A stretch of DNA of 64,000 bases from an uncultured Candidatus Poseidoniales archaeon. Its GTDB lineage: Archaea; Thermoplasmatota; Poseidoniia; Poseidoniales; Poseidoniaceae. The stretch is taken from contig CAJJAP010000001.1 in the NCBI GenBank assembly GCA_905182185.1, forward strand, positions 11,167 to 75,166. The letters run 5' to 3'. Positions 50,965-63,717 of this stretch are shown piece after piece. Both the position numbers and the translations under genes were made by a program. The notes under the pieces were generated by a model that saw only the letters and a list, made by a program, of their open reading frames with translations, was not told the origin of the DNA and did not search any database. Within the stretch, counting starts at the first letter, position 1; each line of letters opens with the position of its first letter.

Positions 50965-52920
50965 TCACAAATATTGTTTTCTTTGCCAAAATGCCATTGC
51001 TAATAATGTGATTATCAGCGTTGAAAGCATAGATAGCGAAGGAAGTCCACCTTCTTCAGAAGGTTCTCCATCAACGATTACGGTATCGCTATCGTCCTCA
51101 GCATAAGGATCGGTAATGAACACAGATAAGGTTCCGATAACTCCGGATTCATCAGTAGCAGAAATGATTACATCATATTCAGTTATTCCTTGGCTCATGC
51201 AAGAAGCGATTGAAACATCGATTTCCCAATTAGTTCCAACTTGGGTGAAATCAGTTGTTGAACCACTGCAAAGTGATAGCATTAGGGTCACTTCTTCGCC
51301 ATCAGGGTCAATTACTATACCTTTCAAAGTAAATTTCAATCCACTATCATCCCATGTAGCATTTTCTTGACTAATTCCAGTAATCAATTCTATAACAGGT
51401 GGAGAACTTGATTTTTCAAGACCAAAGTTTAGCATAAAGGAATATGTCAACATATTAGTCGCATCAGCAGTTCCCATTACCATTACCAGACCTGGTCTTA
51501 ATTTTTTGAGTGATAAACCAGTTGTTAATTCATTTGTTGCAACAGTGATTGTTTTTGCATCAGCCATATTATTCGATTGGTGGGCATGAGCTATGATTGT
51601 CATTTCTCCAACCAATCCAGTTGGTGTGATGGTAAATTCTAATTCCTCACTTTGTTCATTCATCGCAGCGCTTGCCGTAAATAGTTGACCAAATGTCCAA
51701 GTTCTAGATAGTTCTGAAGTTTCCCCATATGGGTCGACGAGGTTACATGTTGCTTGTGAAGAACCAGTGCCAACTGATGTGATGATAAATGCCCCATCCT
51801 CATCCATTTGACTTGACCAGCCATCTTCAACAAAGTTACAATCTAATGTCCAACCATGGTTATCACTTGCCCAATTTTCAGTAATGTCTCCATTCACTAC
51901 TACAACGGTACCATCATCAGATAAAGGGATTATCTTGCCTTCATCAGGTGCACTACTGCTCCAGATTGGTATGTCATTATCTTCAACTTCTTGAGTCGTA
52001 AAGTCAACGTATATTTCACGAATTGCCGGGTAGTTGGAATCAGGATATTCAACGTCAATTGTAACTCTCATTCTCCCGTTTGGAAGGTTTTCTACTACTG
52101 GAATTTCAAGTGCATCATTCTGAATACCATCATCCATTGTTGAGAATTCTAACATTCTCAAACCTTGAGTTTGAGGGAATGTCAATACAAAGGATGCATC
52201 GGTGACATTGGTCACATTTAATGCGAGAGTGAAATTTGATACACCTTTGTTAGGTAATTGGTTAAATTCAGCATTATATGTCTCTTCATCGGCAACGAAC
52301 ATACTGATCTCTAAATCATCAGTTGCTGAAACAGGAATTTCGTAGCAACCATTAGATGCTAACAAATTTTGACAATTTCTTTTTTCTTCATGATCAGATG
52401 GAACTAGATTTACTTCATCAAGTTGAATTCCATCCTGAATGAAACTCCAATTATTCCAATCCACACCAGTGCGATGTGCCACTCCTTCTTTCAACCCAAT
52501 TCTTGTATCCATGTCGGCGATACAATCAGGTCCAATCGCTCTGACAGCATCTCTTTCATCAGTACTTAACCATCCGTTACCGCCGCCTGGTACATCTTGA
52601 GAACCTATTAGCTCATCAAGATTTTCTCTAACAGTCGCTGCATTTGAACCGTTTACCCAAGCGTTTGCATAATAATCTGCGGTAGCCCAATCATCAAGGA
52701 TATTGATGCTAAAACTTGCAAAATCATAATCAAATAAATCTTCAAAAGTCAAACCGCTACAGTTAACTTGTCCTACATCATCTTCTCTTGCTTCAACATT
52801 GGGAACAATGTTCTCTTCAAAACTATTATCTTGAATTTGTGTCGGTGAAAATGTCATCATCAGCAATATCGCGCTGAGAATCAATGAAGAAATTTTCAAC
52901 CTAGTGTTACCATCTGCCAT
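50965..52920 (-). CDS. Extracellular protein with an N-terminal signal/anchor and a C-terminal TM helix, function unknown
   Basis: The signal-like N-terminus is ISSLILSAILLMMTF and the C-terminal helix is LSMLSTLIITLLAMAFW. It lies directly downstream of the ABC-2 pair on the same strand. Confidence 0.5.
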   Translation of the reverse strand: MADGNTRLKISSLILSAILLMMTFSPTQIQDNSFEENIVPNVEAREDDVGQVNCSGLTFEDLFDYDFASFSINILDDWATADYYANAWVNGSNAATVRENLDELIGSQDVPGGGNGWLSTDERDAVRAIGPDCIADMDTRIGLKEGVAHRTGVDWNNWSFIQDGIQLDEVNLVPSDHEEKRNCQNLLASNGCYEIPVSATDDLEISMFVADEETYNAEFNQLPNKGVSNFTLALNVTNVTDASFVLTFPQTQGLRMLEFSTMDDGIQNDALEIPVVENLPNGRMRVTIDVEYPDSNYPAIREIYVDFTTQEVEDNDIPIWSSSAPDEGKIIPLSDDGTVVVVNGDITENWASDNHGWTLDCNFVEDGWSSQMDEDGAFIITSVGTGSSQATCNLVDPYGETSELSRTWTFGQLFTASAAMNEQSEELEFTITPTGLVGEMTIIAHAHQSNNMADAKTITVATNELTTGLSLKKLRPGLVMVMGTADATNMLTYSFMLNFGLEKSSSPPVIELITGISQENATWDDSGLKFTLKGIVIDPDGEEVTLMLSLCSGSTTDFTQVGTNWEIDVSIASCMSQGITEYDVIISATDESGVIGTLSVFITDPYAEDDSDTVIVDGEPSEEGGLPSLSMLSTLIITLLAMAFWQRKQYL

Positions 52921-52982
52921 ATCAATTGATACTAGGTGTCATCTAATACACTTGCCCCTTTAGGGGCAGTATTTTACTTATT

Positions 52983-53813
52983 TCAAGGAACTAAATCTTC
53001 CATTCGTTTTGCAAGTATCCAAAGTGGCAAAACAGTCCAAGCGATTGTCATTAGCCAAATCTGCCAACCAGAAACACCCCGTTGAACACCCGACAATCGT
53101 GTTTCTAGTATGTGGTGATATACACCATTTGGTGAAAATAAATCAAGAGCTCCTTCTAATGCAATCCAAGATGAATCATTATCTTGGCCGATGGCAATTC
53201 CAGAAGCAAGGGCAACCATACTTGTTACCAATGCCCACAAGAATGTGAAGAAAAACCAAATCCCGACTCCAAAAGCCATCGCAGTCCCTTGCTCTCTCGC
53301 TTTTGAAGAAGCGATTAATGTGAATAATGTATACCATGTTAAGATCAATCCAGTTGCGATAATATGGATGATGATATCCATTAATTCTGGCCAAGCACCC
53401 ATTCTATAACGAATAATAAATACTGAGATTAGCAACAAAATGGTTACAGGAATAATTACAGCGACAGAAGTACCATGCACTAGGGCAAGTGTTTGACTTA
53501 ATCGAGACATAGGTTGAGCCAATTTTACTTCTAGCACTCCACTTGCTCTTTCTTTGCTTACACCATCAAATGCCATTAAAACCGCACACATAGTACCACC
53601 GAAAACAATACCAAGACTGGAATAAAACAACACTTCCATAGGGGTTTCAGGGCGGTGACCACCTGGGAGAATGATGCTAGGGTCTGAAAATCCCCAAGCC
53701 ATTCCTGGAATAAACAATAGTAGTATTGGGAACATCAATAACATTCTTGTCGAGAATATTTTCTCTTTGATAATTAGAGAGGTTACTTTTCGGTATGATA
53801 CCTTTCCGCTCAT
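52983..53813 (-). CDS. ABC-2 type transporter permease
   Basis: Six predicted TM helices. It overlaps the ATPase gene by 4 nt. Confidence 0.6.
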   Translation of the reverse strand: MSGKVSYRKVTSLIIKEKIFSTRMLLMFPILLLFIPGMAWGFSDPSIILPGGHRPETPMEVLFYSSLGIVFGGTMCAVLMAFDGVSKERASGVLEVKLAQPMSRLSQTLALVHGTSVAVIIPVTILLLISVFIIRYRMGAWPELMDIIIHIIATGLILTWYTLFTLIASSKAREQGTAMAFGVGIWFFFTFLWALVTSMVALASGIAIGQDNDSSWIALEGALDLFSPNGVYHHILETRLSGVQRGVSGWQIWLMTIAWTVLPLWILAKRMEDLVP

Positions 53814-54853
53814 TCTTCTTCCACCCCCCTATTAATCAATGGTAGGAATGCCGATGAAGTAATTTCTAAGCCCACATCTTCCACCCTAAGACCTGTTGAA
53901 GAACATAACATCTCTACCAAATCGGGTGCATGCGGTTGCCAAGACTCTACTTCAATCCCTTCACTGATGAGTTTTTTCAGTACACCATCTGGATTCCCCT
54001 TCAGTTGCATTTGCCAAGAGTTTTGATCAGTTTCAGATTTAAGCAGTTCCATTCCCAATTTTTTAACCAACTTAGATGATGGTGGCTGTGAAGTTCCTGT
54101 TAGGTCAAACCTATCGCTCAATTCTAAATCTTTTTCGACCGATTTTATTTCACCTTCGATCAGTAGTTGGCCACGGTGAAGTAATGCGATTCTATCTATT
54201 ATCCCAATTAACCCTGATACCTGGTGAGATGATATCACGATAGAAACTCCCTTTTCACTCAATTGTTGCAATAGTTGGGTAAATGCTTGTGCTGCAACAG
54301 GGTCTAATCCATTGAATGGTTCGTCTAGAAGTAGAATATCTGGGGAGCCTAGTAAAGCAGTAGCCAAAGTTAGACGTTGTCGCATACCTTGACTCAATTC
54401 ATCTAAGGGGGAATCGATTCGTGAGTTCAAACCTACCAGTTTAATCAATCCAAGAATACGATGTTCTGAAGAGCCTCTCATCGCAGCAATTTCAGTTATT
54501 GCATCGTGAACTGATTTCTTGCCTTGCCAGCGAACTTGCTCCGGCATATGTCCAATAACTTTTCTCAATTCTACGCTGGTTGACAATTCTCTTTCAATGG
54601 TTTGGTCACCCTTTAAAGAGGTAAAAACAGCAGTCCCTTTTTGCAAAGGTAAGACACCTGCCAACATTCGTAACAAGGTCGTTTTTCCAGCACCATTTGG
54701 GCCAACCAGGCCCAGTATTGTACCTCTGTACAAGGCTAAGTCGATTTTAGGAATGCCGGGTCCACGAATTTTCTTCCATGGTTTTGTTAGCGTTGGGGCG
54801 CTAATATAGTGGCGGCAAGATGCGCCAACAAGTTGTAAAACGACCTCCGCCAT
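53810..54853 (-). CDS. ABC transporter ATP-binding protein with a C-terminal extra domain
   Basis: Walker A is GPNGAGKTT, the signature is LSQGMRQRL and Walker B is LLLDEP. Confidence 0.85.
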   Translation of the reverse strand: MAEVVLQLVGASCRHYISAPTLTKPWKKIRGPGIPKIDLALYRGTILGLVGPNGAGKTTLLRMLAGVLPLQKGTAVFTSLKGDQTIERELSTSVELRKVIGHMPEQVRWQGKKSVHDAITEIAAMRGSSEHRILGLIKLVGLNSRIDSPLDELSQGMRQRLTLATALLGSPDILLLDEPFNGLDPVAAQAFTQLLQQLSEKGVSIVISSHQVSGLIGIIDRIALLHRGQLLIEGEIKSVEKDLELSDRFDLTGTSQPPSSKLVKKLGMELLKSETDQNSWQMQLKGNPDGVLKKLISEGIEVESWQPHAPDLVEMLCSSTGLRVEDVGLEITSSAFLPLINRGVEEE

Positions 54854-54956: not shown

Positions 54957-55877
54957 ATGCTAGGGGGTATAATTTATTCTGCGGGCCTTGTTGTTGCGAT
55001 TATTGTTGTCATATATTTGCAGTATAGAACATTCGTTAAGCAACAAGCAGTTGTCGAAGGAGACACTTCAAACATTTTCAATTACAAAGAAGTATTTGGG
55101 CCGATGGGTCTAGAATTTCTCATCTTATCTCTAGTTCTGATTTGGATAGTACCTTACGGTGTTTTGGTGATTGCACCAATTGGTTTGATATTGTCAGTAT
55201 TGTCACCTGCTGGCCGAATAACATGGTCGCAAACAAAAGTTCCTAGAACAATGGTTTGTGCTTTCTTAATCAGCATGATAATGCTTGGAAGTTTAGCCCC
55301 TGTAGCTCAACCTAAATCTCCTGATTCTTGGGGCAATCCGCTGTTAACTGAAAATCCAAATGCACCCATTTGGCCAGCTAGTCAGCAATATACGTGGCTT
55401 ATGACACCATCTGCTGGTGAATTGGATTTAGAAATAATTCAATCTATTTCGATTAGAACACCCCATCAATTAGGCGTCTATGGTGCAGCGGGTTCAAGTT
55501 TAAATTTGGCATCATTGATGGGATTGGAGCAATCTAGATTACACCAAGCCATTGAATTATTAGATGATGAATTATCATTTGTTAGATTAAACCCTGAAGA
55601 AATGGCACTCACTCTCATACCGAATCAAGAGACTCATCGCTATGTTAGTACTACACTTGGAATTGATGAAAATATTGTGATTCGTCAATATGAACTGCGT
55701 TCATTATCAATAGGGTCTAATGAAGATGGAGTCAAAGTCGGCGAGGTGCTTTGTGCAGCGACTTCTACCTGGGGTGGTGAATTACAGGTTTTGGTAATCA
55801 TTAGACCTCTGGGGCACCCAGATCTTACAACCGATCGGTATGCTGAGGAATTAGTATTAGATTGGCTTTCTGCGTGA
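54957..55877 (+). CDS. Membrane protein, function unknown
   Basis: Three or four N-terminal TM helices followed by a soluble domain. No recognisable family. Confidence 0.4.
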   Translation: MLGGIIYSAGLVVAIIVVIYLQYRTFVKQQAVVEGDTSNIFNYKEVFGPMGLEFLILSLVLIWIVPYGVLVIAPIGLILSVLSPAGRITWSQTKVPRTMVCAFLISMIMLGSLAPVAQPKSPDSWGNPLLTENPNAPIWPASQQYTWLMTPSAGELDLEIIQSISIRTPHQLGVYGAAGSSLNLASLMGLEQSRLHQAIELLDDELSFVRLNPEEMALTLIPNQETHRYVSTTLGIDENIVIRQYELRSLSIGSNEDGVKVGEVLCAATSTWGGELQVLVIIRPLGHPDLTTDRYAEELVLDWLSA

Positions 55878-55925: not shown

Positions 55926-55979
55926 GTTTAGGGCGCCCTAAACTTTCATATAGGGGGGTGTTTTAGGGCGGCCTAAACC
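55926..55979 (+). promoter_or_regulatory. Candidate promoter with a paired palindromic operator upstream of the transferrin-like ABC operon
   Basis: A perfect 18-bp palindrome GTTTAGGGCGCCCTAAAC lies at 55926-55943. The TATA-like TTTCATATA lies at 55944-55952. A second copy, TTTAGGGCGGCCTAAAC at 55962-55978, has one mismatch. GGAGTG precedes ATG 55993. Confidence 0.45.
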
Positions 55980-55992
55980 GGAGTGTCATATC

Positions 55993-58107
55993 ATGAAGCC
56001 ACAAACGCTAAAATCAACATTGCTCGTATTTTTAATTGCCACAGCCTCAATAGCGGGCTGCTTAGGTAGTAAAGATGAAAAAGAAACCTCAGACTCAGAA
56101 GAGTTCGTAATTGCATACAGTGTCAAAGACGATTACACCAACGTTGATGAGAATCCTCAGCGATTAGCTGATTATTTGAGTGAAGAACTTAATATGGATG
56201 TAACACTGTATCCAATTGATTCCGAAGGGGCTGCTCTTGAAGCACTTCGCTTTGGAAATGTAGACATGGCTTTCATGGATGGCGGTGCTGCTTGGGTCGG
56301 TTGGCAACAATACGGTCTAGAGGCGCTTGCAGCAGATCAAAAATCCGATGGCCGAACTTATTACAGCGCTCATGCCATTGTTCTCAAGGATTCTGATATG
56401 GCAGCTGCCTACCTCGATTCGGACCCAAATACGGACCCATTTTCACTTTTAGCAGGTAAGACTTCGTGCCACACAGGGTGGCTAAAATCTGCTGGAATGT
56501 TGCTACCTATGGGATTCCTAATTGGAAATGGATACGCTAATGTCATTGGCGATTCCAGTGATGTAGAATCACTTCGTAACACTATTACTCACTTTTTCAG
56601 TGAAGATTCAAGTATTCCGGACTCCGGAACTCCTTACTATTCCTATTCTGGAGCAGTCAAGTGTCTTTCCGAAGGCGTAGGTGACGTTGCCTTCGTAAAA
56701 GATTCTACAGTTGCTTCCTATTGTGGAAATACAAATGTTTCTGAAAACCTTGAATGGTGTCTTCCAGAATCAGATTATATCTTGCTTCCTTCGTACGGAA
56801 ATGCTCCATCACACCCAGTGATGTACAATCCTGACTTTATGTCATCTGACAGGATTACTCTAGTTCAAAATGCACTGGTTGCTATGAAGGATTCAACAGA
56901 AGGATCATCTATTCTTTCTGATGTCCTCAACACTCCAGCAATCTCGGCTACAAATGCACTTGACCACCTTGGATCATATGGAAACCTCATTGAAGATGTC
57001 CCTGGAATCTCGGCATACTATAGTACTAAATTCACCATTAACGATACTGTCGCTCCTACAGTTTCAAACATTAGAATCGCGTTTGAACTGAAAGATGACT
57101 ACACCAATACTGATGAAAACCCGCAAATCCTTGCCGATTACATTGCTGAACAAACTGGAGTAACTGTAACTTTGTATCCTGTTTCATCAGAAGGCGCTAT
57201 CATCGAAGCTCTTCGTTTTGGCAATGTTGACATCGCCTTTATGGATGGCGGAGCCGCTTGGGTTGGCTGGAAAGAATATGGCCTTGCTACAATGGCTGCT
57301 GACCAGAAAGATGATGGAAGAACATATTACAACGCTCATGCAGTCGTATTGAACGGTTCAGATATTGCAGAGGCTTATCTTGATAACGATACATCAACCG
57401 ATCCATTTGCAATGATGGAAGGCAAGACTTCTTGCCACACAGGTTGGCTAAAATCAGCCGGTATGTTGCTCCCAATGGGTCACTTGATTTCCCAAGGCTA
57501 TGCACCAGTTGTCGGCCCACAAGATGATATTGAGTCACTCCGAGATACCATCCACGCTTTCTTTAACGAAAACGCAAGTATCCCAGACTCCGGAACACCT
57601 TATTATTCTTACAACGGAGCCATAAAATGCCTCTCCGAAGGCGTAGGGGATGTTGCATTTGCCAAGGACTCCACAGTCGCAAAGTACTGTGGTTCCGACA
57701 ATGCAAGCCTGAATGAAGAGTGGTGTCTACCTGAATCAGATTACGTCTTGCTCCCTTCATACGGATCAGCACCATCTCACCCAGTCATGTACAACCCTGC
57801 TAAACTTGACGTTCAAACACGCACTGCAATTCTCAATGCACTGCTTTCATTGAACGGAGAGATGTATGTCGAAAATTACTCCATGCAAGGGCAAGAATAC
57901 ACTGGATGTTACAGCATGACAACTCACATGGTTGACAGCACCTCTCCACAAAATCAGTGTGGTGATCAAATTCTGCTGAATGTTCTCAATACTCCAGGGC
58001 TTGTTGAAGCAAACACCCAAGAACATCTTGGAAGTTACAGTAGTCTTATCAGTGCGATTCCAGGGATTTCATCTTACTTTGATTCCAAATTTGAAATTAC
58101 TGAATGA
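55993..58107 (+). CDS. Bilobal transferrin-like / PhnD-superfamily substrate-binding lipoprotein
   Basis: The lipobox is IAGC. Two colinear ~320-aa halves each carry FMDGGAA, RTYY.AHA.VL, GKTSCHTGWLKSAGMLLPMG, YYSY.GA.KCLSEGVGDVAF.KDSTV and APSHPVMYN, which match transferrin lobe signature blocks. Confidence 0.75.
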   Translation: MKPQTLKSTLLVFLIATASIAGCLGSKDEKETSDSEEFVIAYSVKDDYTNVDENPQRLADYLSEELNMDVTLYPIDSEGAALEALRFGNVDMAFMDGGAAWVGWQQYGLEALAADQKSDGRTYYSAHAIVLKDSDMAAAYLDSDPNTDPFSLLAGKTSCHTGWLKSAGMLLPMGFLIGNGYANVIGDSSDVESLRNTITHFFSEDSSIPDSGTPYYSYSGAVKCLSEGVGDVAFVKDSTVASYCGNTNVSENLEWCLPESDYILLPSYGNAPSHPVMYNPDFMSSDRITLVQNALVAMKDSTEGSSILSDVLNTPAISATNALDHLGSYGNLIEDVPGISAYYSTKFTINDTVAPTVSNIRIAFELKDDYTNTDENPQILADYIAEQTGVTVTLYPVSSEGAIIEALRFGNVDIAFMDGGAAWVGWKEYGLATMAADQKDDGRTYYNAHAVVLNGSDIAEAYLDNDTSTDPFAMMEGKTSCHTGWLKSAGMLLPMGHLISQGYAPVVGPQDDIESLRDTIHAFFNENASIPDSGTPYYSYNGAIKCLSEGVGDVAFAKDSTVAKYCGSDNASLNEEWCLPESDYVLLPSYGSAPSHPVMYNPAKLDVQTRTAILNALLSLNGEMYVENYSMQGQEYTGCYSMTTHMVDSTSPQNQCGDQILLNVLNTPGLVEANTQEHLGSYSSLISAIPGISSYFDSKFEITE

Positions 58108-58142
58108 ATTGCTGGAGATAACCTTTGAAATACATCGTCGCT

Positions 58143-58183
58143 GAAATAGCCCCTTTCTCTATTCCAATTATGGGGGCTATTTC
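58143..58183 (+). promoter_or_regulatory. Intercistronic hairpin between the binding-protein gene and the ATPase gene
   Basis: A perfect 11-bp inverted repeat, GAAATAGCCCC ... GGGGCTATTTC, has a 19-nt loop. It lies in the 179-nt gap after the stop at 58107. Confidence 0.5.
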
Positions 58184-58286
58184 ACTGACCTTTGGAGTGA
58201 TATAAATGAAAAGAAACTTAAATCCTTTTTTGCTATACCCAACCGTTTCAAAAAGTAAAGGCAGCAGGACTGCTTGAGGGGTCTCT

Positions 58287-58970
58287 ATGGTGGAAGCAGT
58301 ACTTGAACTCAAGAACTTGAGTGTTGGTTACGATGAACCGTTGATATCCAACATCAACTTGGAAGTCTTTCCAGGGGAAGTCATAACCATTCTAGGTCCT
58401 TCTGGAATAGGAAAAACAACATTGGTTCGTACGATTGCAGGGCTTATTAGACCCCTTTCCGGATCCTTTGACTTGAATGTTGAGAGGCGAGGTGGATTAG
58501 GATATATCCCTCAACGCTTAGGATTGGTACGACACGCAACAGTTGCGCACAATGTCTCTCTTGGCGCCCGGACAAGAGTTGGTTTTTCACTAAACATGTG
58601 GAAGGAGCGTTCTCAAAGAACAATGGACGCATTACGTATGCTCGGGATTGCTGACAAATCTAATGAACCTGTTCGGCGATTATCTGGTGGGCAGCAGCGC
58701 CGTGTTGCAACAGCCAGAACTTTAGCTCAGAGGCCTCAATTGATGCTGGCAGATGAATTCCTTGGCGAACTAGATCATTCAAATGTTGAAATTGTATTCG
58801 AAGCAGTTCAGAATTTGGTCGATGATGGTACCGCTGTAATCATGATTGAACACCATGATGATAACGCTCAATTATTCGCTACACGAATATGGGAAATCCA
58901 GGACGGCAAAATCGCAGATATTTCAATCAAAGAGTGGAAAAACCGAAAGACTGGGGGTGAAGAGGAGTGA
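58287..58970 (+). CDS. ABC transporter ATP-binding protein, PhnC-like
   Basis: Walker A is GPSGIGKTT, the signature is LSGGQQRRV and Walker B is MLADEF. The size and layout match phosphonate-type importer ATPases. Confidence 0.8.
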   Translation: MVEAVLELKNLSVGYDEPLISNINLEVFPGEVITILGPSGIGKTTLVRTIAGLIRPLSGSFDLNVERRGGLGYIPQRLGLVRHATVAHNVSLGARTRVGFSLNMWKERSQRTMDALRMLGIADKSNEPVRRLSGGQQRRVATARTLAQRPQLMLADEFLGELDHSNVEIVFEAVQNLVDDGTAVIMIEHHDDNAQLFATRIWEIQDGKIADISIKEWKNRKTGGEEE

Positions 58971-59824
58971 AATACCGTCTCTTTGGAATTATTTCCATTT
59001 TGTTGTTACTTGCTTGGCAAACTCTCGATGGATTAATTGAAGGTGATTGGGGCCGACTTGAGGGCGGACTTGGAAATCTCTCAGTATTTTTTTCTGAAAG
59101 TATGTGGCCTCCAAATTGGAGTGTCATAGAAGCACGCCCGTATCCCGTGTGTGAATCTGAAATTGAATTCTTCTGTTCAGTTGGTTATCTCGGCATGATG
59201 GAAACAATAAAAATCGCCTTTGTTGCAACAATTCTGGGATTTATAGGAGCCTTGTTTTTCTCATCTCTCGCAGCACGCAATCTTGTCCCTCTCTATGTAG
59301 CAATCCCCGTACGAATTTTACTCTCTGCGATTCGAAGTTTGCCAAGTCTAATTTGGGCGATTCTATTTGTGATTGTGATTGGTTTTGGTCCTCTTTCAGG
59401 TGTTTTGGCTATGACTTTCTACACCGTTGGGTATCTTGGTAAATTGCAGTATGAAACATTTGAAGGAATGGCCAATGATTCTCTTGAAGCCAGTCGGGCA
59501 ATGGGCCTTCCACGGAGTAGCATTTTGCTGAATGTAGTTATCCCTGAAAATAGTAATCATCTATTGAGCCAATTAATGTTCATGTTTGAATATAATGTCC
59601 GCCATGGAACAGTAATTGGAATTGTTGGTGCCGGTGGAATTGGTTATTACATTAGCACTTATCTCAAATTCCTCCAATATGAGAAAGTCTTTGCACTTCT
59701 CATTTTGATATTTGTAGTCGTTGTAATCATTGACTTACTTTCAATGATGGTTCGCTCTTTTGTTAACGATGAAGGGGATGTCCGTCGTCCAACATGGTTG
59801 AATGTTGTACTTTCAGAAAAATGA
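58967..59824 (+). CDS. ABC transporter permease, PhnE-like
   Basis: Multi-pass membrane protein with the EAA-type loop LEASRAMGLPRSSILLNVVIPE. It overlaps the ATPase gene by 4 nt. Confidence 0.7.
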   Translation: MKYRLFGIISILLLLAWQTLDGLIEGDWGRLEGGLGNLSVFFSESMWPPNWSVIEARPYPVCESEIEFFCSVGYLGMMETIKIAFVATILGFIGALFFSSLAARNLVPLYVAIPVRILLSAIRSLPSLIWAILFVIVIGFGPLSGVLAMTFYTVGYLGKLQYETFEGMANDSLEASRAMGLPRSSILLNVVIPENSNHLLSQLMFMFEYNVRHGTVIGIVGAGGIGYYISTYLKFLQYEKVFALLILIFVVVVIIDLLSMMVRSFVNDEGDVRRPTWLNVVLSEK

Positions 59825-60128: not shown

Positions 60129-61136
60129 TCAACTGAGGGTGACCATTCTTCTACAGCATTCTTCAGCATTGATATCCCCATTAAGCAATGTATTCAATGC
60201 CTTGGTGAATGGAATTTGGATATTATCATCCTCTGCTCTATCAATAAACATCCTTGTTGCTCTTACTCCTTCAGCAACCATGTGCATCTCTTCCAATGCC
60301 TCATCAAGTGTTAATCCAGTTCCCAGTTTTTCACCTAGAGTACGGTTTCTTCCATGTGGTGAAGTCGCAGTAACGTACAGGTCACCCAATCCAGCAGGGC
60401 CGAATGCAACTTCTGCTCTTGCGCCTAGTTGGGGTAGCAATAAGCAACCTTCTTTGAATCCGGCCATAAAAATCGCAGCCTTGAGATTATCGCCACCCAA
60501 TGTACCAACTTGTTTCAATCCATCAACCAATCCACATGCAAGTGCAACTACATTTTTGAAAGCACCCCAAAGTTCAGCACCGACGGGGTCGGATGCAGGA
60601 TGTAAGATGAAAGTTTGAGTCGTTAACGTCTTTGCTAGTTTTTTAGCAACAGAGATATCTTCGCTTGCAACCAATGCAGTAGTCATTACTCCCGCGGCGG
60701 CTTCTGGTGCGATTGTTGGACCTGTGACAACCGCCAAAGGATTAGCCATACCAGCAGCAGTCAACTTCTCCTGAATCGCATGTGAAATCATTTGATTGTC
60801 AGGGGCTAACCCCTTTGCTAAATCGATAATGACATGTCTTGGTCGCAGGTGTGGAATCACTTGGTCTACGACATCCAAAATCACAGAGGAAGGTACGGCA
60901 AGAACCACAACTTCAACCCCATCGAGGGTGTCTGCAATGTGCATTGATACATCCATGCCTTTGAGAGATAGTTTTGGGAGATACTTATGATTGATATTTT
61001 CCATTGTTATGGACTCATATACTTCTGATTCAATAGTCCATCCTTTGACCTTATGACCATCATCAAGCCACATTTTAGCGATAGCGCTTCCCCAATTACC
61101 GAGGCCTAAAATTCCAATGGATACCATGTCAACCAA
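60129..61136 (-). CDS. gpsA: NAD(P)H-dependent glycerol-3-phosphate dehydrogenase
   Basis: Has the N-terminal Rossmann motif IGILGLGNWGSAIA, plus NVVALACGLVDGL and GLGDLYVTATSPHGRNRTLGEKLG blocks. Confidence 0.85.
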   Translation of the reverse strand: MVDMVSIGILGLGNWGSAIAKMWLDDGHKVKGWTIESEVYESITMENINHKYLPKLSLKGMDVSMHIADTLDGVEVVVLAVPSSVILDVVDQVIPHLRPRHVIIDLAKGLAPDNQMISHAIQEKLTAAGMANPLAVVTGPTIAPEAAAGVMTTALVASEDISVAKKLAKTLTTQTFILHPASDPVGAELWGAFKNVVALACGLVDGLKQVGTLGGDNLKAAIFMAGFKEGCLLLPQLGARAEVAFGPAGLGDLYVTATSPHGRNRTLGEKLGTGLTLDEALEEMHMVAEGVRATRMFIDRAEDDNIQIPFTKALNTLLNGDINAEECCRRMVTLS

Positions 61137-61223
61137 TGGTCACCCTGCACCCTTTGCTTAAGTCGCTTACCACTGTAAGAGAATGGTACAGTTAAGTTTT
61201 ACAACTCATTTGATAATGCCAAA

Positions 61224-62367
61224 TCAGAAAAGATCGTCGTCAGCATCATCTAAATTAATTGCTTCTTTGCCATCTTTTTTGGATTCTTTGGCAGCAGGTG
61301 TTTGTTCAACTGCATCAGTTTCATTTATCTCAAGGGATTCTGCAACTTCCTCAAGGTGCATTTGTTGTTGTGCTTTGCGAGCAGCGATTGCATTTTCAGA
61401 ACTTCCACCTTGAAGGGTGAGTGCTCTTCTTCGATCCTCACGGGCCTTACGCTCAAGTTGTCTATGACGAGACTTTTCGATATTTTGTAGCATATACATT
61501 GCATCGTGTTCTAGCAATGGTGAATCCGAGATCAATGTGATGTCTAACCATCCACCATCTTCAACGATAAAATCAGCTAGTGGCTCAAAGTTCAAGTCAG
61601 ACTTCTTGATTTGAGTATAATGCATTGCATTTCCACCGCGGTGGTCAACTCCAGAGAAGTGACAATAGAATTCTTTTGTACCAATCGATTCTCTAACTTG
61701 GTCAAATAATTCTCCATAATCTTCAGAGGTTCTCATTCGTCCATGCCCTCGGGCGTGAATATGTGCGATATTGAGGACAGGTATTGTACCTTCAACGTGA
61801 TTGACAACTTCTAGAACTTCTTCTAAACTACCCCATAACTCTTGTCTTCCTGATGTTTCAACTCCGATTTTAGAAGGAGTGCCATCTTTTATCCAAGGGA
61901 ATACAGGGAATTCGTCTTCATCATCATGCCAGATATCGGCGACACGGTCGACAATTCCTGCGAATACATTAGCAACTTGCTCGTTAGCAGCAGTTCCACG
62001 ACTCATGCCACCATAATGGCCAGCGTGTAAAGTGATATGACGGGCATTAATTGTACGGGCCGCTTGTAAAGTAGATTCAATCTTGGTTAAACTTCTGACC
62101 TCTCTCAACTCTGTTACCCAATAATTCTGAATAATATGGCCCATGAATGTTCATTTCAAACTCGGTTTTATTTGAAAGTACACCGGCTTGCCAATATTGC
62201 TCAAAGTGATTTGGAGCAACCATACGAACGGTTTGAACTTCCATTGTTTCCAATCCGAGTGAAATTATATCGTCCATTCCTTCAACAATTGTCCTTCCTT
62301 TACAGGACAATGGAATTCCGGCTGGACCTAACTTGATTGGCATAGCATGACCTCCCCGCAGAACCAA
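61224..62367 (-). CDS. Endonuclease IV-like (AP_endonuc_2 TIM-barrel) protein with a K/R/E-rich C-terminal tail; frame break near 62110
   Basis: ORFs 62077..62367 (...EMNIHGPYYSELLG) and 61224..62144 (...TELREVRSLTKIESTLQAARTINARHITLHAGHYGG...IGVETSG...NIAHIHARGHG) read as one TIM-barrel protein after a 1-nt correction. Confidence 0.55.
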
Positions 62368-62489
62368 TCCAATGGTCGTCTCTCCTTAACCCCTTTCTGT
62401 TGACTGTTTGCCAAATCTATTCTTTTTCTTCCCATTTCACTATAATGCGACATACGACTATCTATGAAGTAGAGACACAACGAGTGGCC

Positions 62490-63197
62490 ATGGACGAGAC
62501 GATATCTAGGGCTATTGAAGCTTTCAAAAGCGGAAATCCGATTTGCCTTTTTGACTCGGAAAACAGGGAAGGAGAAACCGATTTATTATTCCCTGGACAA
62601 TTCGCCCAGCCGGCCACTATGCGTCAATTGAGAAAGGATTGCGGAGGATTACTCTTTTTGGCAATAGGGCACGACATAGGGGAATTGTTTTCTCTACCGT
62701 TTTTACAAGACCTGCACACTCATCCAGCATTGGTTGCAGATAATTTAGTGCTAAAGGAATTAGTCACCAATGATTTACGCTATGATTCACGTTCAGCATT
62801 TACGCTATCATTGAATCACCGAGGAACATATACTGGAATTACAGATCACGACAGAGCTTTGACAACACGACGCTTTGCAGAATTGTCCGAAGAATGCCAA
62901 CAGGCTGGACTTAGCGGAGAAGATGCAAGAAAAGCACTTGGCAACGAGTTCAGAACTCCAGGGCACATTCCGGTTTGCAGAGAGTCAGAAGGTGGATTAT
63001 CTCGGCGCCAAGGACATACTGAACTAGCGGTAGGATTGGCGCGTCTTGCGGGAATGACTCCTGTGGTCATCGGCGCAGAGATGCTACAGCCAGATGGTGA
63101 CGGAGCATTGTCAGTAGAGGATGCACGCGCATGGGCCCTGCAGAGAGACATTCCATTCCTAGAAGGGGCACAACTAACCGCTGCTCTAAATTTGTAA
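62490..63197 (+). CDS. ribB: 3,4-dihydroxy-2-butanone 4-phosphate synthase
   Basis: Contains NREGETDLLFPG, TPGHIPV and GHTELAVGLARLAG. ATG 62490 is preferred over the upstream TTG at 62400. Confidence 0.8.
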   Translation: MDETISRAIEAFKSGNPICLFDSENREGETDLLFPGQFAQPATMRQLRKDCGGLLFLAIGHDIGELFSLPFLQDLHTHPALVADNLVLKELVTNDLRYDSRSAFTLSLNHRGTYTGITDHDRALTTRRFAELSEECQQAGLSGEDARKALGNEFRTPGHIPVCRESEGGLSRRQGHTELAVGLARLAGMTPVVIGAEMLQPDGDGALSVEDARAWALQRDIPFLEGAQLTAALNL

Positions 63198-63252
63198 TTA
63201 GCAACCGATATTAACAAGAATAGCAACCTGTTGCAAGTGATAAGGTGAGACG

Positions 63253-63717
63253 ATGAAGAGAGTGATGGCAGTTGGAGTTTTTGACTTACTCCACGCAGGC
63301 CATTTGCATTACTTAGAGCAAGCCAAAGCATTGGGAGACCACCTCACAGTAGTTGTTGCACATGATGATACGGTGCGAAAGCGAAAGCATGAACCCGTAA
63401 CCGGACAAGACCTTCGTTGTAGAATGGTCGAAGGATTAAAACCAGTAGATGATTCAATAATTGGCAATCCACCAAACGTCCCTATTTTTGACATCTTGCC
63501 GATTGTCAACCCAGATATCATTGCACTTGGTTATGACCAAATACATGCGGTTGAGAAAATAAAATCCAAATTGTCGGAATTAGGTCTTAATTCAATAGAG
63601 GTGACCAGAGTTGAAGGTCTTAGTGATGATTTAGATGGTACCCGTAAGATTATTGCCAGAATATTAGAATTGGCTTCAGAGAGAAAACAATTCGATGATT
63701 CAAAGGGGGGTGAGTGA
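63253..63717 (+). CDS. ribL: Archaeal FAD synthetase (FMN adenylyltransferase)
   Basis: The cytidylyltransferase-fold N-terminus is GVFDLLHAGHLHYLEQAKALGDHLTVVVAHD. The ~150-aa size fits. Confidence 0.75.
   Translation: MKRVMAVGVFDLLHAGHLHYLEQAKALGDHLTVVVAHDDTVRKRKHEPVTGQDLRCRMVEGLKPVDDSIIGNPPNVPIFDILPIVNPDIIALGYDQIHAVEKIKSKLSELGLNSIEVTRVEGLSDDLDGTRKIIARILELASERKQFDDSKGGE

Follow-up and report, generated by a model that had tools for sequence, protein, structure and literature searches.

The locus considered here raises a simple question: is the cargo of a three-gene ATP-binding cassette (ABC) importer operon in a marine archaeon a phosphonate, as current annotation has it, or iron? The operon lies in a 64,000-nt stretch of DNA from an uncultured Candidatus Poseidoniales archaeon (assembly GCA_905182185.1, contig CAJJAP010000001.1, positions 11,167 to 75,166 of the forward strand), referred to below as the window, and it encodes a two-lobed lipoprotein of the transferrin family, a PhnC-like ATPase and a PhnE-like permease. 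The Poseidoniales, or Marine Group II (MGII), are among the most abundant planktonic archaea, and to our knowledge nothing has been established about their iron acquisition. The comparisons assembled here indicate that the operon probably encodes an iron-repressed, high-affinity Fe(III) ABC importer that has so far been annotated as phosphonate transport. Its parts, in window coordinates, are the following.

55993..58107, + strand: binding-protein gene, 704 amino acids (aa)
55993..56061, + strand: signal peptide and lipobox S-I-A-G-C23, residues 1-23 (from sequence reading)
56098..57045, + strand: N-lobe, residues 36-351 (from profile matches and the N-lobe AlphaFold model)
57064..58104, + strand: C-lobe, residues 358-704 (from internal alignment and ligand columns)
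58137..58189, + strand: stem-loop with 17-nt arms, then a T-run, directly 3' of the binding-protein stop codon
58287..58970, + strand: ABC ATPase gene, 227 aa, closest to PhnC (Pfam ABC_tran, 98 bits)
58967..59824, + strand: permease gene of the PhnE family, 285 aa (BPD_transp_1, 58 bits)

A first-pass annotation of this DNA had described the binding protein as an internally duplicated transferrin homologue, and this description stands. The gene coordinates it gave are exact, residues 362-704 repeat residues 40-349 with 62% identity (E 1e-157), and both halves contain all five of its motif blocks (residues 94/416, 121/443, 159/481, 215/537 and 271/593). These blocks are not a chance resemblance, because each half passes the Pfam Transferrin model and the best PDB matches all belong to the transferrin family. 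Pfam Transferrin (PF00405, gathering score 20.3) gives 138.7 bits for the whole protein and 74.8 and 70.9 bits for the halves, while Phosphonate-bd (PF12974, threshold 27) gives 157 bits for the whole protein and 74-87 bits for the halves, each half thus passing both models at similar scores. When the N half was compared with all PDB sequences by phmmer, the best 60 matches were lactoferrin, transferrin, ovotransferrin and melanotransferrin only (top E 9.7e-29). Taken together, the Pfam scores and the PDB sequence matches identify a genuine member of the transferrin family. When 64 archaeal lobes are combined into a profile, it gives about 103 bits to the human transferrin N-lobe and 27 bits to Escherichia coli PhnD. 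The PhnD equivalog model TIGR03431 is clearly failed (74.5 bits against a cut-off of 261.1), and the TIGR01098 subfamily model is just missed (111.5 bits against 112.05).

An exhaustive search of 1.84 billion representative proteins returned 411 matching clusters at E<=0.001, a number that marks a compact family rather than the broad PhnD superfamily. The nearest members outside the archaea are the transferrins of unicellular marine holozoans (Chromosphaera, Creolimax, Amoebidium, Ichthyophonus, Abeoforma, Sphaeroforma and probably Corallochytrium), together with those of the green alga Bryopsis and of animals. No prokaryotic relative of eukaryotic transferrins closer than this family is known; per-lobe identity to eukaryotic transferrin lobes is 32-40%. 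Database names already imply this kinship, since NCBI uses "PhnD/SsuA/transferrin family substrate-binding protein" and one entry of the Joint Genome Institute (JGI) reads "melanoma-associated antigen p97"; in the literature searched, no paper describing the archaeal kinship was found, and the tree of McQuaid et al. 2018 may include such sequences.

The positions that bind metal and anion in transferrins were located as columns of the profile alignment, which makes this an alignment-level test. The correspondences, N-lobe first and C-lobe second, are as follows.

Transferrin Asp63: D96 / D418
Transferrin Tyr95: Y124 / Y446
Transferrin Thr120: T161 / T483
Transferrin Arg124: K165 / K487
Transferrin Tyr188: Y218 / Y540
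Transferrin His249: H274 / H596
Transferrin Cys118-Cys194: C159-C224 / C481-C546

Y124, T161, Y218 and H274 are found in all 64 archaeal lobes, D96 and K165 in 62 of the 64 each, and the C159 and C224 columns hold Cys in 64/64, suggesting that C159-C224 and C481-C546 form disulfides. In the two-lobed orthologues (n=20), every ligand, anion-site and Cys-pair position is unchanged in both lobes, and about 60 one-lobed archaeal relatives have these residues as well. T161/K165 and T483/K487 sit inside an unchanging block, S-C-H-T-G-x-x-K-S-A-G. Further Cys pairs occur at C244-C256 in the N-lobe and C566-C578 in the C-lobe, and the latter has an extra pair, C639/C656, within an insertion of about 30 residues. 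Alignment columns and conservation therefore agree in predicting a complete D-Y-Y-H plus Thr/Lys set in both lobes, as had been claimed at first, with two amendments. The original register for Tyr95 (Y123) was off by one: the profile alignment, the A-x-A-x-V strand pattern and the variability of Y123, which aligns with Phe94 and is Y in 31 lobes, H in 19 and F in 10, place Tyr95 at Y124 and, in the C-lobe, at Y446. The replacement of Arg124 by Lys, to which attention had been drawn, is real but not peculiar, Lys being the commonest state among non-vertebrate transferrin lobes. The ligand columns of the human transferrin N-lobe sequence used as marker match those of database vertebrate and amphioxus transferrins (P0219, P0245, P0146) and of PDB lactoferrin alignments. 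Divergent two-lobed relatives (P0122-P0127) have lost ligands in one lobe, as have some animal transferrins.

A separate observation concerns one MGII genome in which a second two-lobed binding-protein gene follows the first in tandem (L037:8354-10471). The His motif in the N-lobe of this second copy is degenerate, with TPSDVFM for APSHPVM, and an extra operator copy, of the kind described below, precedes the ATPase gene.

The predicted structure is compatible with this assignment and less specific. The AlphaFold model of the N-lobe (predicted local distance difference test, pLDDT, 95; predicted template modelling score, pTM, 0.89) presents a two-domain hinge-bending lobe fold, which is not exclusive to transferrins. 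Foldseek matched it in PDB to melanotransferrin (2e-16), the human transferrin N-lobe (2e-15) and PtxB (7e-16), with template modelling (TM) scores of 0.5-0.64 that are limited by open versus closed hinge states. The fold thus points to a shared superfamily only, and the placement among transferrins comes from the sequence signatures. A full-length AlphaFold model, based on an alignment of 20 orthologues with 62-91% identity, was discarded at pLDDT 47.6.

The setting of the gene is that of an ABC importer. The lipobox residues A21, G22 and C23 are unchanging in the 20 two-lobed orthologues, and the one-lobed relatives have the lipobox consensus LAGC. The PhnC-like ATPase and PhnE-like permease noticed downstream are both confirmed by model scores: the best NCBIfam model for the ATPase is TIGR02315 PhnC, at 132.6 bits and far under the equivalog cut-off of 266, and the permease reaches 216.4 bits on TIGR01097 PhnE, for which the cut-off is 216.7. 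The start of the permease gene overlaps the ATPase stop codon by 4 nt, and a spacer of 179 nt separates the binding-protein stop from the ATPase gene. The stem-loop in this spacer is probably a partial terminator or stabiliser that yields surplus binding-protein mRNA. In the 79 species loci compared, the ATPase gene is present in 71 and the permease gene in 67. A 1.9-Mb long-read MGII assembly (L007:9091-9948) has an ATPase gene, after a one-lobed gene, that is split into short open reading frames (ORFs), probably by an assembly frameshift error rather than as a pseudogene.

Independent information on the cargo comes from the promoter, where two palindromes that are predicted operators flank a TATA-like element.

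55927..55942: operator 1, a perfect 16-bp palindrome, TTTAGGGCGCCCTAAA, just 5' of the TATA-like element
55944..55952, + strand: TATA-like element, TTTCATATA, between the operators (from sequence reading)
55962..55977: operator 2, TTTAGGGCGGCCTAAA, spaced 35 bp from operator 1, with its end 15 nt short of the ATG

The element TTTCATATA would be an archaeal promoter element, with transcription predicted to start near 55978-55982. The two palindromes are the only matches to the core TTTAGG-N4-CCTAAA in the window, against 0.17 expected by chance. Practically all of the 79 species loci have an operator 5' of the orthologue, in most of them as a pair with a distance of about 33-35 bp, or of 44-46 or about 79 bp in some lineages. 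The pattern TTTMGG-N4-CCKAAA occurs at 175 sites in the 820 kb of these loci, compared with 7.6 in shuffles; 154 of the 175 sites fall in the binding-protein promoter, mostly paired, and 11 in the spacer before the ATPase gene, which in some species carries an operator copy instead of the stem-loop. The operator also precedes distant one-lobed and three-lobed homologues. Because the core has only 12 specified bases, chance matches would swamp a collection-wide scan, and locus sets anchored on the regulator or on the binding protein were used. The sole copy in the 79 genome loci that is unlinked to the binding-protein operon, at L044:9033, precedes a gene for a membrane protein of about 120 aa.

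The regulator on which the second locus set is anchored belongs to the DtxR family. Its gene (Pfam Fe_dep_repress plus Fe_dep_repr_C) lies directly 5' of the operon in a Thermoplasmatota contig (L006) and divergent from it, about 130 nt away, in 8 genome loci. In the 219-aa regulator of MGII and Marine Group III (MGIII), encoded for example at L040:5132-5788, M13, C105, E108 and H109 align with Met10, Cys102, Glu105 and His106 of Mycobacterium tuberculosis IdeR. In IdeR these four residues make up the primary site that senses Fe; in MntR, the Met and Cys positions are occupied by Asp and Glu. When 80 metagenome loci were selected solely for the regulator, 76 had the operator 46-128 nt 5' of the regulator gene; these include loci without a transferrin-like gene nearby, so that the operator travels with the regulator. 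In 65 loci the sequence reaches far enough upstream to reveal the divergent partner of the regulator. It is the transferrin-like operon in 26 of them, an iron permease of the FTR1 family in 22 (115 bits on Pfam, REALE motif present), a Peripla_BP_2/FecCD importer together with a CarboxypepD_reg protein in 11 and another gene in 6, and the three-lobed homologue stands directly 5' of the same FecCD-type cassette. By these counts, the transferrin-like operon is one of three alternative members of an apparent iron-uptake regulon, and the conserved DtxR/IdeR-type operator and regulon lend the iron-uptake reading independent support.

Other genes recur around the regulator as well. A DsrE-like gene and a thioredoxin gene come after the dtxR-like gene (L110:6028-6528 and L110:5660-6013, with equivalents in L111, L143 and L159), and in some loci a gene for flavodoxin, the classic low-iron replacement for ferredoxin, lies near the dtxR-like gene.

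A mechanism can be proposed on this basis. The substrate-binding protein would be a lipid-anchored, two-lobed transferrin-family member, each lobe of which, having the hinge-bending type-II binding-protein fold, would close on one Fe(III) through Asp96/418, Tyr124/446, Tyr218/540 and His274/596. A synergistic anion, carbonate or possibly phosphate, would be held by Thr161/483, Lys165/487 and the N-terminus of the adjacent helix. Docking of the loaded lobe on the PhnE-like permease would follow, with the PhnC-like ATPase powering import. Under iron-replete conditions, a DtxR/IdeR-type repressor, whose gene would be located elsewhere in the same genome, would bind both palindromes around the TATA box and shut the promoter.

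Several observations weigh against an iron importer. We know of no characterised PhnCDE-type system that moves a metal; all of them handle phosphorus or arsenic oxyanions. The binding protein itself passes Phosphonate-bd and nearly passes TIGR01098, and Foldseek does not separate the transferrin lobes from PtxB, AioX and ArrX, all at about E 1e-15. No DtxR-family gene lies within the 64-kb window, and the link between the regulator and the window promoter consequently rests on the shared operator. In addition, the copy of the regulator in L006 has Glu at the Met10 position, and DtxR-family proteins can sense Mn too.

The first of these points lead to the annotated function, that is, an ABC importer of phosphonate, phosphite or phosphate in which Asp, Tyr, Tyr and His hydrogen-bond an oxyanion and no metal is involved. 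Its basis consists of the 157 bits on Phosphonate-bd, the scores just below cut-off on TIGR01098 for the binding protein and on the PhnE model for the permease, the Foldseek matches to PtxB, AioX and ArrX as well as to transferrins, and the Tyr that E. coli PhnD has at the Y124 column. The JGI annotation (phosphate/phosphonate binding proteins) treats the system in this way, as does Tully 2019, where "transport of phosphonates" is placed in the MGII core genome (PMC6336850). Such a function sits poorly with the wide failure of the PhnD equivalog model and with the archaeal lobe profile, which favours transferrin far above E. coli PhnD; moreover, PhnD lacks the Asp and cannot be aligned over the Thr/Lys, second-Tyr and His columns. 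The promoter operator belongs to an iron-type DtxR/IdeR regulon with FTR1 and FecCD systems, not to a phosphate regulon. Homologues of the carbon-phosphorus (C-P) lyase proteins PhnF/G/H/I/J/M/N/P were found neither in the window nor in 1.53 Mb of related archaeal loci, a search that did not extend to PhnWX, PhnYZ and PtxD. A single-cell genome survey likewise saw no phosphonate-consuming archaea in a set in which MGII made up 80% of the archaea. What remains as an argument for phosphonate is the PhnE/PhnC-type transporter, and oxyanion import is considered highly improbable.

The last points lead elsewhere, to a metal importer whose cargo is another hard ion, such as Mn(III)/Mn(II), Al, Ga, Ti or V, under a regulator that senses Mn or metals in general. 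The DtxR family includes the Mn sensors MntR, SloR and ScaR, which are also among the PDB matches of the regulator, and the Glu of the L006 copy would fit this explanation; transferrin sites accept several hard cations, and Ti(IV)-bound transferrin and Ce-bound lactoferrin are among the Foldseek matches. Yet the MGII and MGIII regulators carry Met and Cys-x-x-Glu-His, the Fe-type DtxR/IdeR primary site, and the other operons found alongside this regulator and operator belong to iron transport (the FTR1 permease with its REALE motif and Peripla_BP_2/FecCD). D-Y-Y-H with an anion site is, furthermore, the classical Fe(III) site. A cargo other than iron accordingly appears unlikely, and Fe(III) import is retained as the preferred function.

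A further question is how the binding protein relates to eukaryotic transferrins. The closest proteins come from Poseidoniales, and relatives are encoded in at least 395 species-level genomes, the best 80 of which represent MGIIa, MGIIb, MGIII-labelled genomes and other Thermoplasmatota, with the original MG-II genome of 2012 among them. The protein belongs to the core of both MGII families and also occurs in MGIII, in other Thermoplasmatota and in one Halobacteriales metagenome-assembled genome (MAG). Apparent bacterial members in L055 (Yoonia), L083 (Salinimicrobium) and L077 (a deltaproteobacterial single-cell genome) were rejected, as they come with the MGII-specific upstream gene and have MGII-like sequences; these are probably mis-binned or contaminating contigs.

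Lobe number varies within the family. The 79 species loci hold 43 two-lobed and 31 one-lobed genes, with 5 cut by a contig end, and in one MGII genome the locus syntenic with the window holds a one-lobed gene. In a lobe tree, a clade free of eukaryotic lobes unites the window protein's lobes with those of its nearest two- and three-lobed relatives in 100/100 bootstraps, and lobe-to-lobe identity is 62-72%, compared with about 41-46% in the eukaryotic proteins measured. The lobe clade, the lobe identities and the one-lobed forms at the locus argue that the two-lobed state is an MGII duplication independent of the eukaryotic one; judged from these sequences, the two-lobed form arose within Marine Group II, convergently with eukaryotes.

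A three-lobed homologue of 1156 aa is encoded on a TARA scaffold (L004:2018-5488, P0030; also in L005), with ligands intact in all lobes. Three operator copies lie upstream of it, and CarboxypepD_reg and Peripla_BP_2/FecCD/ABC genes follow downstream instead of PhnC/PhnE.

Scores on the two Pfam models place the archaeal lobes between PhnD and eukaryotic transferrins, as given below in bits for Transferrin and Phosphonate-bd, respectively.

E. coli PhnD: 0 / 268
P0234, one-lobed, branching with Nitrosopumilus-type proteins: 22 / 171
Archaeal lobes: about 75-80 / about 80-87
Ichthyosporean lobes: about 105 / about 50
Vertebrate lobes: about 340 / about 20

When E. coli PhnD serves as the root of the tree, the earliest branch is that of the Nitrosopumilus-type proteins, and the Thermoplasmatota proteins and eukaryotic transferrins form one clade in 154/200 bootstraps. 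Within the 200 replicates, eukaryotes are nested inside archaea in 84, the two are sister groups in 61, and archaea are nested inside eukaryotes in 9. As these trees were built by neighbour-joining with a single distant outgroup, the direction of descent is only suggestive. The first-pass annotation had suggested that the protein would look like an intermediate form; the family-wide score gradient and the PhnD-rooted clade agree with this term, whereas bilobality, which had been part of the argument, is not a shared ancestral trait.

The Nitrosopumilus-type proteins deserve a description of their own. The marine Nitrosopumilus "phosphonate-binding protein" (the P0263 / P0467 family, with more than 1600 relatives) has Asp, Tyr, Tyr, His and Thr at the transferrin columns in 121/121 sequences, with Gly at the Arg/Lys position; it is without the Cys pair and matches the PhnD Pfam model only. 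In N. adriaticus (CP011070.1, L089:7001-8089), the operon comes after the cbtB-cbtA cobalt-transporter genes. This protein may be metal-binding rather than phosphonate-binding.

Two histories can be considered for the clade. In the first, marine Thermoplasmatota hold the direct prokaryotic stock of eukaryotic transferrins, together with a core, unrecognised class of iron importer that combines a transferrin-type binder with a PhnE-type permease. The Fe(III)/anion site, D-Y-Y-H and the first disulfide would then have been assembled in archaeal ABC-importer binding proteins, along a path that began with PhnD-like proteins, led over a D-Y-Y-H form of the Nitrosopumilus type and ended in the Cys-pair form of Thermoplasmatota; the gene would then have been transferred to an early eukaryote. 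This history is put forward tentatively, as possible but still rather doubtful. In the second, a eukaryotic transferrin gene was captured horizontally by marine archaea and PhnCE was attached later, in which case the family would be uninformative on the origin of transferrin. Capture would accord with the closest non-archaeal relatives being marine protist transferrins, with the one transferrin disulfide in common and with support of only 65-70% for the split between prokaryotes and eukaryotes. The bootstraps with the PhnD outgroup speak for it in 9 cases against 84 with the reverse nesting and 61 with sister groups, however, and a family that is core to both MGII families and spread over MGIII, other Thermoplasmatota and a Halobacteriales MAG, with at least 395 species genomes, is hard to reconcile with it. 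The Nitrosopumilus proteins, with D-Y-Y-H, no Cys pair and a much higher PhnD score, bridge the family to PhnD, and the regional guanine-cytosine content is unremarkable. Capture is therefore regarded as a poor prospect.

The surroundings of the operon are given here for completeness. Immediately 5' of the operator, a 306-aa predicted membrane protein without a Pfam match is encoded at 54957-55877 (+); the gene stands outside the operator-controlled unit, and a homologue occurs in 38 of the 79 species loci. Further upstream, the block at 50965-54853 (-) consists of an ABC-2-type exporter pair, with its ATPase at 53810-54853 and its permease at 52983-53813, followed by a 651-aa protein, secreted or anchored, that matches no Pfam family; this block is syntenic in the MGII genomes L001 and L007. 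Downstream lie a glycerol-3-phosphate dehydrogenase gene with a TTG start (60129-61136, -) and riboflavin-related genes (62400-63717, +), namely a DHBP-synthase-like ORF at 62400-63197 and a cytidylyltransferase-like ORF at 63253-63717; the functions given for the genes in 60129-63717 are those of the precomputed Pfam labels on the syntenic L001 genes. The riboflavin and glycerol-3-phosphate dehydrogenase arrangement is kept in other MGII genomes.

Should the iron reading be correct, the inferred nutrient physiology of MGII changes, with the removal of a supposed phosphonate trait, and metatranscriptomic work on iron stress gains an archaeal marker gene whose operator and regulon are defined. 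That transferrin arose from phosphonate-binding proteins was proposed earlier from phylogeny. The present family would supply living forms that are still paired with an ABC transporter and already have the full predicted metal and anion site of transferrin; because they combine the two, the transition from PhnD to transferrin can be tested by biochemistry and structure. Two questions thereby become directly testable, the iron supply of MGII and the rise of transferrin from phosphonate-binding proteins.

Comparison with known systems places the operon at the junction of several of them. It has in common with DtxR/IdeR regulons the palindromic operators over the promoter, a regulator gene divergent from metal-uptake operons and the Met/Cys/Glu/His site; the archaeal 16-bp TTTAGG-N4-CCTAAA palindrome, a predicted operator, is shorter than the 19-bp box of IdeR and DtxR. 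An archaeal precedent is said to exist in Archaeoglobus, where the DtxR homologue MDR1 reportedly represses its own metal-ABC operon.

With PhnD, PtxB, HtxB, AioX and ArrX (PF12974), the archaeal protein shares the superfamily fold and the PhnC/PhnE-type partner genes, and with E. coli PhnD the Tyr at the Y124 column. It differs from PhnD in failing the PhnD equivalog model and in having the transferrin ligand set and Cys pair, which PhnD is without. Nor does its operon resemble PhnD-type systems in its setting: among the C-P lyase genes searched, no phosphonate-catabolism neighbours were found around it, and the promoter carries a DtxR/IdeR-type operator, not a phosphate-regulon arrangement.

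The proposed working principle is analogous to that of FbpA, SfuA and FutA, the "bacterial transferrins". FbpA is a hinge-bending protein that holds naked Fe(III) by Tyr, His and acidic ligands with a synergistic anion, on behalf of an ABC importer, and its likeness to transferrin is convergence or distant fold similarity only. The archaeal protein is, by contrast, a true PF00405 homologue, with no FbpA-type Pfam or NCBIfam family among its matches at E<=1, and its permease differs from those of FbpABC-type importers in being PhnE-like with a single BPD_transp_1 domain. A eukaryotic parallel is the diatom phytotransferrin ISIP2a, a carbonate-dependent Fe(III) binder on the cell surface of marine plankton, for which McQuaid 2018, as cited in PMC7676907, proposed a phosphonate-binding-protein origin in common with transferrin. 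ISIP2a, a eukaryotic protein, relies on endocytosis instead of an ABC importer. Among the Pfam profile matches of the archaeal protein at E<=1, none is to an ISIP2a/Fea1-type family.

The eukaryotic transferrins of PF00405 (serotransferrin, lactoferrin, ovotransferrin and melanotransferrin) are the closest counterpart. The lobe fold, the Asp-Tyr-Tyr-His columns, the Thr plus Arg/Lys site and a C118-C194-type Cys pair are common to both, and lobes are repeated on both sides, although the archaeal duplication is independent and recent. The archaeal protein has only two (N-lobe) or three (C-lobe) Cys pairs and scores equally on the PhnD-type Pfam model. Whereas eukaryotic transferrins are secreted or GPI (glycosylphosphatidylinositol)-anchored and rely on receptors and endocytosis for uptake, the archaeal protein is a lipoprotein encoded together with an ABC permease and ATPase.

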